Shown here piece by piece: positions 60,087-62,156 of a stretch of 64,000 nucleotides of DNA. Positions within the stretch are counted from its first letter, which is position 1. Every line of letters begins with the position of its first letter. Position numbers and translations under genes: made by a program. The DNA lies in assembly GCA_012690745.1 (NCBI GenBank), contig GCA_012690745.1_4086.1. One strand, 5' to 3'. The notes below the pieces were generated by a model, which ran no database searches, was not told where the DNA came from, and worked only from the letters and a program-made list of their open reading frames with translations. This DNA is from a phage.

Positions 60087-60146
60087 AGCTGTTTGTCCTG
60101 TTTTGTTAAATAAAGTATATTAAAAAGTTTTGTGAGGTACAATAGA

Positions 60147-61094
60147 ATGGCTAAAATGACACAACAACAATTTATAGATAAATCAATTAATCTACATGGT
60201 AGTATTTACACCTACAATAACACCGTGTATGTTAATGCACATCAACCAGTGTCTATTACATGTAAAATTCATGGTGACTTTACGGTAGTTCCTAATAAAC
60301 ATATTTCCGCAAAGCAAGGTTGTCCGGTTTGTTCTGATATTGCAAAGAAAGAACGTAAATCTAAAAAGTCACTGGAGTCATTCTTTACTGAAGCAAAAGA
60401 AGTACACGGTGATAAGTATGATTACTCTAAAGTGTTTTTCAACATTCGTTCAGAGAAAATTACTATCATATGCAAAGAAGAAGGTCATGGTGAATTTAAT
60501 CAGGTAGTTAGTAATCACCTAGCTGGACAGGGTTGCCCTGAATGCTCCAAAGCACTTATTGGTTTAAAGAAAAGAACACCAGAAGATGTATTCTTTGAAG
60601 ATTGTAAGTACATTCATATGGATGCATACGACTACTCCAATACAAAATATAATGGTATGTATGAAACAATTACACCAGTATGCAAACGTCATGGAGAATT
60701 CACAGTACTGGCAACTAAACATTATCATAGAAAGCAAGGTTGTCCGGTTTGTTCTGACATGGAACTAAAGTCAAGACCAGTTATTGAAATTCAGAATTTT
60801 TTAAAAGAGTATGATATAATATTTGAAATGGAAAAGAAGTTTGATGGTTGTAAAAATATAAACCATTTACCATTTGATTTTTATATTCCTTCACTGAATC
60901 TTCTAATAGAGTATGATGGTATTCAACACTTCAAACCAATAGAGTACTTTGGTGGTAAACAAGCTTTAGCTGAACAGCAAAGAAATGATGAAATAAAAAA
61001 TCAATTCTGTTTTAATAACAACATTACTCTTCTTAGAATAAAGTATTTCGAAGATCATATTAAAATCATCAAAGACTATATATCAAAACTTTAA
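60147..61094 (+). CDS. homing-endonuclease-like protein: three tandem zinc-ribbon modules plus C-terminal PD-(D/E)xK (DUF559/Vsr-like) nuclease domain
   Basis: Three repeats of HG(D/E)FTV....KH....KQGCP(V/E)CS; C-terminus FDFYIP...LLIEYDGIQHF. ORF track start 60132 is a GTG; ATG 60147 follows GTGAGG. Confidence 0.6.
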   Translation: MAKMTQQQFIDKSINLHGSIYTYNNTVYVNAHQPVSITCKIHGDFTVVPNKHISAKQGCPVCSDIAKKERKSKKSLESFFTEAKEVHGDKYDYSKVFFNIRSEKITIICKEEGHGEFNQVVSNHLAGQGCPECSKALIGLKKRTPEDVFFEDCKYIHMDAYDYSNTKYNGMYETITPVCKRHGEFTVLATKHYHRKQGCPVCSDMELKSRPVIEIQNFLKEYDIIFEMEKKFDGCKNINHLPFDFYIPSLNLLIEYDGIQHFKPIEYFGGKQALAEQQRNDEIKNQFCFNNNITLLRIKYFEDHIKIIKDYISKL

Positions 61095-61200
61095 AATATG
61101 ATATAGTTTTTTTAGAACCAAGTAATAAAAATGTTACTTGGGTTTTTATATGTGTAAAAGTTGGAACTAAGTACTTAATGAATATTTTTATAAAAATAGT

Positions 61201-61228
61201 GAGACAACTTTAAAGTTTGTGCTATAAT
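61201..61228 (+). promoter_or_regulatory. sigma70-like promoter (GAGACA - 16 nt - TATAAT) preceding the ORF-free region
   Basis: gagacaACTTTAAAGTTTGTGCtataat. Confidence 0.45.
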
Positions 61229-61234
61229 GTTTGT

Positions 61235-61665
61235 TGTAGTAATGACAATCCTGTTGAATGCAGAAATGCATATAAATTAGAACCTGATCCTATCGAAAAT
61301 GTAGATGGCAGATGAGCAGTTCAACAGTGCGATGAGCAAAAGAAACCCGTTAGATGTGGGCATAGTTTGAACCCCTCACGGCAATGCGGCTCAATAAAGA
61401 ACTCCGATAAGCATACAGAGAGTTCCTAGATAGACATATAAGGATCGCACCTTACCAGATTTGCTAAGGGAGTTTATTAAGTGATTTTAATAAACAGCCT
61501 GAAGTTTGATTGTATAGACTTTCAGGTGAGTGTCAGGATGATTAAGACTGACGACCGTTGCACATGACTGCGATAGAGAGAAACAGAGCAACCCGCTTTC
61601 GTTCTTAATATATTTTTAAGAAATTCGCAATACAATAAATGCTGAAACCATCAGCGTCAAGAAAT
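61235..61665 (+). ncRNA. candidate structured non-coding RNA locus (no ORF; flanked by promoter and terminator)
   Basis: About 430 nt without ORFs in a tightly packed genome; locally higher GC; internal hairpin CCTGAAGT...ACTTTCAGG (61497-61527); repeated GATGAGCA. No tRNA cloverleaf recognised by eye. Confidence 0.3.
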
Positions 61666-61690
61666 AGAGACTTCATTGTCTCTTTTTTAT
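61666..61690 (+). terminator. intrinsic terminator closing the ORF-free region
   Basis: AGAGAC-ttcatt-GTCTCT followed by TTTTTTAT. Confidence 0.7.
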
Positions 61691-61902
61691 TGTCTTCATT
61701 CCCCTGCGGGGGGATGAAAATGTCCTCAACAAATCCCGTCAAGTATTAAATCTTTTAAAGTTCTTTATAATTAATTTAATTAAATGAATATGAGTTACGT
61801 AGTAACGAATATTCTTCAGCTAACGAATGAAATGAGTTAGATGAATCCAATAATATTAAAATTAATCCTTTCATAATTCAATTCAAATAATTCTGTAGTT
61901 TA

Positions 61903-61936
61903 AAACCAAAAAAAAAACCAGCAACAATGTGCTGGC
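61903..61936 (-). terminator. intrinsic terminator (minus strand) after ORF 61947-62156
   Basis: Minus-strand CCAGCA-cattgt-TGCTGG followed by TTTTTTTTTTGG. Confidence 0.6.
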
Positions 61937-61946
61937 TATATGAAAA

Positions 61947-62156
61947 TTAGTGCTTCTCGTTTTGTTTTTTAATTTTTTTATTAAAAGACTTAACTAATAA
62001 GTCTCTATCTATTAATGGCATATTAAGGAGTGTTCCATAGTCAATGTTATCCATATATACAGAACATTCCATTAGTGCATTTTTGATTTCTGACTTATTC
62101 AGTTCTATCTCCTTCAGTACTTCTTGTATTTCTTCAGGAGATGACTGGAGAAGCAT
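61947..62156 (-). CDS. small hypothetical protein (69 aa)
   Basis: Start overlaps the stop of the upstream gene at 62156; K/E-rich. Confidence 0.4.
   Translation of the reverse strand: MLLQSSPEEIQEVLKEIELNKSEIKNALMECSVYMDNIDYGTLLNMPLIDRDLLVKSFNKKIKKQNEKH

Follow-up and report, generated by a model that had tools for sequence, protein, structure and literature searches.

The locus described here occupies positions 61201-61690, plus strand, of a phage DNA of 64,000 nucleotides (nt; GenBank assembly GCA_012690745.1, contig GCA_012690745.1_4086.1), which as a whole is called the window, and in all likelihood it is an expressed gene for a structured noncoding RNA (ncRNA) of a new family. An earlier note on this DNA, made from the letters alone, had proposed a candidate structured ncRNA between a promoter and a terminator, and the proposal is supported by covariation across 16 helices, by pairing in sequences held out from the derivation of the fold and by the lack of a conserved open reading frame (ORF). 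As claimed there, the locus is free of ORFs: none of more than 45 amino acids (aa) overlaps 61188-61749 on either strand, and there is no credible ORF in 61201-61690. Its GC content is also raised, at 0.395-0.425 across 61200-61599 against 0.205-0.26 before (61000-61299) and 0.24-0.305 after (61600-62099), and a very AT-rich stretch comes after the last conserved repeat (site 2, Table 1). A minus-strand terminator at 61916-61937 lies between the RNA locus and the downstream operon. The locus is 100% identical to the corresponding DNA of Escherichia phages SHEFM2K, PBECO4, phAPEC6 and others, and 99.8% identical to that of phage 121Q (Asteriusvirus, ~350 kb). The genome is that of a RaK2/121Q-type jumbo phage (Asteriusvirus-like) and not of a classical T4-like phage, the comparison drawn in the earlier note; nor is the likening to T4 tRNA clusters and small stable RNAs apt for an RNA of ~0.5 kb with more than one pseudoknot and several copies per genome.

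The promoter-like element suspected at 61201-61228 was recovered in a consensus scan, scoring 10/12 with a TG before the -10 element. The motif TGnTATAAT (TATACT in some bacterial copies) is kept at the 5' edge of most aligned members, whether paralogues, orthologues or bacterial copies, and transcription would start at about 61235-61238. The terminator read at 61666-61690 also stands, with a stem that covaries in orthologues (helix 15) and a U-tract; a terminator scan found 7 terminator-like sites in 5 kb against 1.6 expected. Most family members have it, but some do not, 121Q copies 1 and 2 among them. Promoter and terminator are both predicted and conserved at the locus, but the unit does not end at 61690 and runs on to ~61745. 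The terminated form would span ~61236-61688 (~450 nt), and the predicted conserved unit reaches ~61745 (~510 nt). A copy in a chromosomal island of Escherichia coli LR-29-1 is 80% identical to the copy of Serratia phage BF over 546 nt, and because this homology, which begins just after the promoter, stops at site 2, site 2 is independently supported as the 3' boundary. The alignment shows that the gene is transferred as a complete module, with the same ends as the predicted RNA.

Table 1. Predicted features of the RNA locus (window coordinates; PK, pseudoknot; helices numbered as in the covariation analysis)
Feature	Position	Strand	Details
Promoter, sigma-70-type, extended -10	61199..61228	+	TG 61220-61221, TATAAT 61223-61228, weak -35; TGnTATAAT = 61220-61228
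5' hairpin with GAAA (GNRA) tetraloop	61258..61271	+	AUGCA-GAAA-UGCAU; read from the sequence, outside the counted structure
5' domain	61285..61393	+	single strands CCUGAUCC, UCGAAAAUGUAGA and GAUGAG; covariation, helices 1-4; 93-100% paired in the hold-out set
5' domain helices	61292-94/61304-06, 61316-18/61328-30, 61333-37/61389-93, 61347-50/61378-81	+	last one encloses a variable hairpin
Two hairpins with junction	61399..61454	+	61399-404/61420-425 (6/6 pairs covary), junction GAUAGACAUAUA, 61439-42/61451-54; helices 5 and 6
Invariant segment and helix	61463..61495	+	CUAAGGGAG, then helix 61472-77/61490-95; helix 7, 6/6 pairs covary
Long hairpin	61497..61527	+	helix 8; loop 61509-61515 AUUGUAU pairs with 61630-61636 AUACAAU to form PK1 (helix 9)
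Conserved 3' core	61531..61636	+	helices 10-14; 97-100% paired in the hold-out set, except 61602-06/61618-22 at 86%
Parts of the 3' core		+	hairpin 61531-33/61551-53; invariant GACCGU; closing helix 61569-73/61625-29; hairpin 61602-06/61618-22; 3' strand of PK1
PK2	61557-61 (GUUGC) with 61588-92 (GCAAC)	+	inside the loop of helix 61576-80/61596-600 (GAGAG/CUUUC)
Small hairpin L	61641..61661	+	61641-45/61651-55; 3' strand is repeat site 1 (AUCAGCGUCAAG, 61650-61661)
Intrinsic terminator	61666..61688	+	stem 61666-71/61678-83, then U-tract; scan and covariation (helix 15)
GC hairpin (C4/G6)	61694..61718	+	G-run GGGGGG 61708-13; C-rich 5' strand CCCC-UGC 61701-07; flanks UUCAUU/AUGAA
Repeat site 2	61733..61745	+	AUCCCGUCAAG, 61733-43; 3' boundary of the conserved, horizontally transferred unit

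The evidence for a selected fold comes from comparison across the family. Helices were found by a mechanical search for stacked covarying column pairs and were then counted on a MAFFT alignment of 22 sequences, which gave 16 helices with 76 pairs, two pseudoknots included; 98.2% of the 1636 cells are canonical, and double-sided compensatory changes occur in 52 of the 76 pairs. The covariation score is 0.477 against 0.166 for column shuffles, of which 0/500 reach the observed value, and in the control in which the 3' partners were slid by 1-3 columns pairing is 37-48% (~40%) with a score of ~0.06. Covariation across related phages, the test that had been proposed in the earlier note, is therefore strongly positive. 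Because the helices had been picked on the alignment that was counted, a second count took 33 further sequences, drawn from paralogue groups and bacterial loci that had played no part in deriving the structure. Here 93% of cells are paired overall, with 97-100% for the core helices and both pseudoknots and 37-50% for the slid controls. The structure has 154 G·U pairs but only 5 A·C pairs, an asymmetry that indicates selection on a plus-strand transcript. Minimum free energy z-scores are modest (-3.25 on the plus strand, -2.0 on the minus strand), add little and were not relied on. Compensatory pairs beyond the controls, on one strand and without a conserved ORF, are what generically marks a conserved structured ncRNA, and they are what we found.

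The same data bear on the possibility that the locus is a decayed protein gene, or a repeat acting at the DNA level (a miniature inverted-repeat transposable element, an iteron or a protein-binding array) with no RNA function. The element is multicopy and holds direct repeats (sites 1 and 2), and some GenBank records place two to three small ‘hypothetical proteins’ over it, all of which would suit such an origin. However, the longest ATG-initiated ORFs of the 22 family members, of 27-80 aa, are inconsistent in position and strand, and no ORF is conserved among these members in position, strand or frame, so that the scenario of a decayed gene, which the earlier note had named as a way of being wrong, is not seen. 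Moreover, compensatory substitutions lie within helices, long-range ones included, the G·U to A·C ratio speaks for selection on one transcribed strand, and the copies are ancient and syntenic rather than recently transposed. We regard this explanation as effectively refuted.

An ORF of 36 aa at 61639-61749, which spans both repeats, was considered as a gene and rejected, as it is not conserved and has, for example, a stop in phage CBB. Two to three ‘hypothetical protein’ coding sequences are annotated over the RNA locus in GenBank records PQ390715, PP886230, PQ330092, OR699181-8, MK773491 and others, and gene 516 of 121Q (a minus-strand ORF of 156 nt, ~51 aa) falls inside the third copy of that genome. 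These coding sequences are most likely spurious, which is of practical concern given how many GenBank records carry them.

The predicted RNA has the design of a large, tertiary-structured molecule and not of a simple small RNA. Long invariant single-stranded junctions (UCGAAAAUGUAGA, GAUGAG, GAUAGACAUAUA, CUAAGGGAG, GACCGU, GAAACAG and ACCCGC) are found in it along with the helices. Equivalents of the GNRA-capped 5' stem, with stem sequences that differ, are found in CBB, Munch and the family sequence L021. The internal stable hairpin noticed earlier at 61497-61527 covaries, and its loop makes the long-range pseudoknot PK1, which is 99.2% paired with 4/6 pairs covarying in the 22 sequences; in the hold-out set the five cleanly mapped pairs are 99.4% paired and 5/5 covary, the sixth falling in a column nearly without letters. 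Other members replace the PK1 strands by UUCGAAU/AUUCGAA or UCAUAU/AUAUGA, and those of PK2 by GUCAU/AUGAC or GUUGA/UCAAC. PK1 could in principle form within one molecule or between molecules, and the covariation fits both. The periphery is variable: in other members helix 61472-77/61490-95 bears an insertion of 60-90 nt, a hairpin with a conserved 16-nt loop UACAAnAnAGAUCCGU, and this module is inserted in helix 61472-95, in helix 61602-22 or in both, depending on the member. In a divergent subfamily, known from metagenomic phage contigs, the 3' domain alone is retained, from AAAGGGAG on (~270 nt), and the 5' domain attached to it is another, longer one; the baseplate-hub/portal neighbourhood is the same in at least one of these contigs. 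Since this subfamily keeps that part alone, the 3' domain can be taken as the conserved core, within which the core of ~110 nt (61531-61636) is maintained even at this divergence.

The 3' end of the unit was aligned for 50 members. Past the terminator, where there is one, most carry a hairpin with a C-rich 5' strand (mostly CCCC-N3-4) and a nearly invariant GGGGGG. Unlike the other helices, this C4/G6 hairpin has C-to-U on the 5' strand as its sole change and double-sided changes in 0/5 pairs (helix 16); it is kept by sequence rather than by compensatory covariation. After it comes AAAUCCCGUCAAG, whose last motif is site 2, a direct repeat of site 1 (AUCAGCGUCAAG). The two sites change in strict concert: positions 61651 and 61734 are both U in 30 members and both C in 20 (mutual information 0.97 bit), and where one site has a rare variant, UGUC, CUUC (in RaK2), CGAC (in a Serratia prophage) or CGAAG (in the divergent metagenomic subfamily), the other has it as well. 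The 5' strand of hairpin L (strand X, 61641-45) covaries with site 1 across subfamilies (GACGA/UCGUC, GAUGC/GCGUC, UUUCG/CGAAG, UCGAU/AUCGA), and because site 1 evolves in concert with site 2, X is equally complementary to site 2. A scan of the rest of the RNA for a third segment complementary to the repeats found none, strand X just upstream excepted; for a pairing between the repeats and GAUG (61714-17) there is a single compensatory case (Serratia sequence L037), and this pairing fails in RaK2 and in the divergent subfamily. The best reading would be two mutually exclusive helices, X with site 1 or X with site 2, and since X is complementary to both repeats the 3' module may have two alternative states. 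Template-realignment repeats or paired processing sites are another possible account of the twin sites. Covariation of the identity type between two 3' repeats is an unusual evolutionary signature and calls for a mechanism.

The family is widespread in jumbo phages. BLAST matched 72-74 phage records, with identity down to ~67%, most of them at 4-5 places and the RaK2-type Klebsiella phages at two. The hosts of these phages are Escherichia, Salmonella, Klebsiella, Erwinia, Serratia, Yersinia, Pectobacterium and Cronobacter; two Xanthomonas phage records also matched, known from BLAST alone. In 121Q, where copies were sought in most of the genome by alignment and with an nhmmer profile, there are four, all on the plus strand, at ~90.2, 192.7, 247.4 and 326.6 kb, the last being the counterpart of the window copy, and most are preceded by TGnTATAAT. 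This copy 4 has the endonuclease VII gene on one side and the baseplate-hub operon on the other in 121Q, Pectobacterium phage CBB, Serratia phage BF, Salmonella phage Munch, Erwinia phage Hallingskeid and a distant metagenomic phage. Copy 2 is followed by the dam/cytidyltransferase genes, in 121Q as well as in RaK2. On clustering, a copy groups with its orthologues in other genera and not with its paralogues in the same genome; identity between paralogues is only ~70%. From the synteny shared across jumbo phage genera it follows that the paralogues are old and stable in position.

Copies were also found beyond jumbo phages. A scan with a 23-base degenerate pattern taken from the core gave 51 IMG/VR loci, 69 metagenome loci and 4 bacterial assemblies, and distant BLAST matched 2 of 5,426 complete E. 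coli genomes; the PLSDB plasmids gave no match. Pattern scans and nhmmer together yield 105 distinct members, 82 of them full length. Chromosomal islands or prophages of Enterobacterales hold five members, each as a single copy and four of the five within ~5 kb of a serine recombinase, and at the bacterial loci the RNA gene is close to the edge of the integrated element. A large serine recombinase is encoded ~400 nt upstream on the same strand in Silvania and in Serratia sp., and the Serratia fonticola chromosome has a serine recombinase and two ParB-like genes beside the host tilS; a cI-type S24 repressor adjoins the RNA gene in Silvania and in an Enterobacteriaceae metagenome-assembled genome. 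In E. coli LR-29-1 the copy belongs to a ~10.7-kb island beside ffs (L069:4958-15302) with integrase remnants and a small serine recombinase. An all-against-all BLASTP of the neighbours found no protein common to all loci. A role as guide or bridge RNA for the recombinase was considered and dropped: a serine recombinase is near four of the five bacterial copies, and none was found in the 121Q annotation.

The LR-29-1 island also carries IS3, a truncated tyrosine integrase and DUF4326, DUF488 and dual-OB proteins, and ~700 nt downstream of its RNA gene are likewise unannotated; a defence island and a degenerate satellite are both conceivable. In a further setting, on metagenome contig OERT01000271.1 (L096:994-1700), a divergent copy lies between an MFS transporter gene and genes for very large BNR/sortilin-repeat proteins, unlike both the jumbo-phage and the recombinase-associated loci.

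The RNA might be thought a cis-regulatory element, that is, a leader, an attenuator or an antisense element for a neighbouring gene. A promoter and a terminator in series resemble an attenuator, and plus-strand genes follow 121Q copies 1 and 2, which are without the terminator. However, neighbours differ between copies and are often convergent: the downstream gene is a different one at every copy, and it is convergent at the window copy and at the four bacterial loci from the genome-contig scan. The minus-strand terminator at 61916-61937 cuts the window locus off from the downstream operon, and ~500 nt with two pseudoknots are far more than known attenuators have. A cis-regulatory role of this kind is thus very unlikely.

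Could the locus be a member of a known RNA class, too diverged to be recognized at once? Candidates would be a tRNA cluster, tmRNA, RNase P RNA, a group I or II intron, GOLLD or ROOL, or a small ribozyme. Size and pseudoknot content are typical of ribozymes, a homing-endonuclease-like ORF adjoins the locus in the window and in phage Munch, and by our own reading PK2, helix 61569-73 and hairpin 61602-22 together resemble a pseudoknot of the P3-P7-P8 type. The searches point the other way. The earlier note had recognized no tRNA and had suggested tRNA and Rfam scans; ARAGORN found 0 tRNA or tmRNA genes in the window, and Rfam 15, with Intron_gpI, RNaseP, GOLLD, ROOL, HEARO, small ribozymes and known phage small RNAs among its families, gave no match in it at gathering threshold. 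At E ≤ 10 on 61000-62000, the locus itself has only chance matches to short small-RNA and cis-regulatory models (15-21 bits, where the gathering scores are 36-54) and, as the one hit to the classes just listed, a tmRNA fragment of 5.5 bits against a gathering score of 47; the best match of that kilobase (35.6 against 99 bits) falls beyond the locus, near 61903-61987, where the minus-strand terminator is. Rfam at E ≤ 1 on RaK2 and three bacterial copies returned nothing relevant. On these results for the window, for the locus at permissive E and for divergent members, a tRNA, a tmRNA or a known RNA family was rejected. For a group I intron in particular, the unit lies between genes with its own predicted promoter and terminator, there is no exon continuity and no Rfam match, and only 7 nt separate the 5' strand of PK2 from the next helix, where a P4-P6-like domain would sit. 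The endonuclease ORF does not overlap the RNA, and 121Q, CBB and BF lack it. We consider it hardly credible that the RNA is a diverged form of any of these classes. It shares with group I introns, RNase P RNA and tmRNA its size, pseudoknots, GNRA tetraloops and a variable periphery around a conserved core, but differs from them in lacking any model match, exons or splice context, tRNA-like ends, a tag ORF, and P4-type or CR-I/CR-V motifs.

Closer parallels exist among RNAs carried by phages. GOLLD and ROOL are large ‘ornate’ ncRNAs associated with phages and prophages, which form Rfam families of unknown function and have been studied by cryo-electron microscopy (PMC12286853). Like the RNA described here, they are several hundred nt long with many helices, pseudoknots and long-range loop contacts, and are carried by phages or prophages, and they are independent transcription units, as is predicted for the present RNA; the present RNA also has, like them, a hairpin loop that would make a 6-7-bp long-range contact (PK1) and peripheral modules that vary. 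Unlike GOLLD and ROOL, it shows no covariance-model similarity to them, occurs in 4-5 diverged copies per genome and, at the window and 121Q copies, is not adjacent to tRNA genes; the hosts differ as well, being Enterobacterales jumbo phages here and Lactobacillales or rumen organisms there. The Pseudomonas jumbo phage PA5oct, of a related lineage, encodes ncRNA001-004, which are defined by RNA-seq, ORF-free as are the present loci, and 236-619 nt long, two of them being very highly transcribed, with function unknown (PMC7318152). These are not detectably homologous to the present family (nhmmer --max with the family profile, best E = 0.74-1.4), the motifs GACCGU, ACCCGC and AAGGGAG are all absent from them, and their genomic neighbourhood is different. 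Because the GOLLD and ROOL models fail and the PA5oct ncRNAs are not homologous, we rate the predicted RNA family as a new RNA class. A description of this RNA was not found in the literature on these phage genera, and the paper on a screen of 10,006 viral RNA candidates names, supplementary lists aside, no jumbo phage; the family is absent from Rfam and from the searchable literature, although large automated candidate lists (e.g. PMC10690425) may hold it unnamed.

PA5oct ncRNA004 (L139:5617-6235) ends in UUCCUUCCC-AAAC-GGGGAGGAAA, which resembles the C4/G6 hairpin at 61694-61718; nothing else in it matches (nhmmer E = 1.4), and this end may be an analogue rather than a homologue.

The 3' hairpin and the spacing of the copies also raise the possibility of a cis-acting replication origin. 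Transcripts such as ColE1 RNA II and those of T4 oriF and oriG are RNA primers that form R-loops. The present RNA would likewise be a structured primer, kept as a persistent RNA-DNA hybrid at the invariant C4/G6, processed near site 2 and used to prime DNA synthesis; the 4-5 copies would be origins, and an infecting jumbo phage would replicate the islands that hold a copy. As in ColE1 RNA II and the T4 origin transcripts, a structured RNA of ~0.5 kb would be made from a promoter, predicted here, with a G-run or C-run near its 3' end, and RNA II at ~550 nt is close to it in size. As with T4 origins, there are several loci per phage genome, and the phage encodes a UvsW-like helicase and an RNase H, along with a T4-type replisome. 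Further in favour are the distribution of the 4-5 copies along ~350 kb, on one strand in 121Q and at positions conserved between genera, the independent, non-homogenized evolution of the paralogues, the conservation of the C4/G6 hairpin by sequence and not by compensatory change, the very AT-rich stretch past site 2 and the capture of exactly this module by chromosomal islands. However, the RNA has no sequence relationship to RNA II or oriF/oriG, in most copies a strong intrinsic terminator precedes the G-run, and the architecture is far more elaborate: known primer RNAs need no ribozyme-like tertiary complexity or conserved junctions such as those of the 5' 400 nt. The prophage copies, between integrase and cI-type repressor, would be in an unusual place for an origin. 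We therefore consider an origin unlikely, while giving it, as the chief competing explanation, a small but appreciable chance.

The explanation that we favour is an RNA that works by itself. The comparisons show what is, as far as sequence can tell, a stand-alone and horizontally portable gene whose multi-pseudoknotted fold is strongly selected on the plus strand. The host sigma-70 RNA polymerase would transcribe it from the extended -10 promoter, and since it would be this polymerase, transcription would probably be early in infection and constitutive in cells that carry an island. Two RNAs would be made, a terminated one of ~450 nt and a read-through one of ~510 nt. The RNA would act as a folded molecule, ribozyme-like or as a scaffold for protein or RNA, and not as the leader of a neighbouring gene; its action would probably be in trans, since the neighbours vary, are often convergent and the module works in very different genomic settings. 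The 3' module may switch as X pairs with site 1 or site 2. Any particular activity is much less certain than the expressed gene of a new family itself. Taken as a whole, the proposal is of a new class of large functional RNA (a ribozyme or a self-assembling or scaffolding RNA), with 4-5 specialized phage copies, captured by islands and equipped with a two-state 3' switch, which, through RNA alone, would take part in conflicts between phage and host or phage and island, or in replication of the phage genome; in this full form we put it forward tentatively, as possible rather than probable.

Several points weigh against this reading. Four to five diverged copies that keep their positions fit a role in cis, or one dependent on position, at least as well as dosage, and the paralogues of trans-acting RNAs are often homogenized, whereas these are only ~70% identical. 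Action in trans and a catalytic or scaffolding role are suggested by the architecture only. Choosing helices on the very alignment that was counted is a selection bias, which the hold-out test mitigates; in that test three helices of variable regions are lower, at 58-82% paired, because the window row aligns poorly there. RNA-seq of RaK2/121Q-type enterobacterial phages was not found in the searchable literature, so that the transcript is a predicted one, and the PA5oct ncRNAs, not being homologous, give no transcript evidence for the present family.

Large RNAs with an architecture of ribozyme grade are rare in bacteria and phages, and most of the known large RNAs have proved to be catalysts or unusual assemblies, as with rRNA, RNase P, introns and, recently, ROOL, GOLLD and OLE. 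The family described here offers a deep alignment validated by covariation, with 105 distinct sequences and two pseudoknots. It is immediately testable because its hosts are tractable, E. coli phages 121Q, PBECO4 and phAPEC6 being among its carriers. Lytic jumbo phages have it in 4-5 copies, and integrative islands with the same range of hosts have it too, which points to an interplay of phage with host or satellite, or to genome replication.

The surroundings of the locus show some further features. An ORF of 320 aa at 60132-61094 (plus strand), with its own terminator at 61118-61141, separates the endonuclease VII gene from the RNA promoter in the window. Treble-clef zinc-finger motifs (DUF723, DUF4379) recur in it, its C-terminal part matches DUF2726 weakly and below threshold, and we take it to be a nuclease-like, free-standing gene of the homing-endonuclease type. 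It has no counterpart at the same site in 121Q, CBB or BF; Salmonella phage Munch has an ORF of 318 aa there. The idea that the window copy lies inside a terminal repeat was rejected, as the UE-S1 ‘repeat_region’ is a mere 158-bp feature within the element. Downstream of site 2 (61750-61915), the segment GAAAATTCTTWGACAWTCGAAGAWTGGCWAAT is common to the copy-4 orthologues of CBB, BF, Munch and Hallingskeid; it precedes the bidirectional terminator (61916-61937) that closes the minus-strand baseplate operon and is outside the transferred RNA module. In 121Q, the unannotated gap at 135-137 kb was considered as a further copy and rejected, not being homologous. This second large unannotated gap (135.2-137.2 kb, ~2 kb; L004:37194-39161) is rich in AGTACTGA-type repeats.

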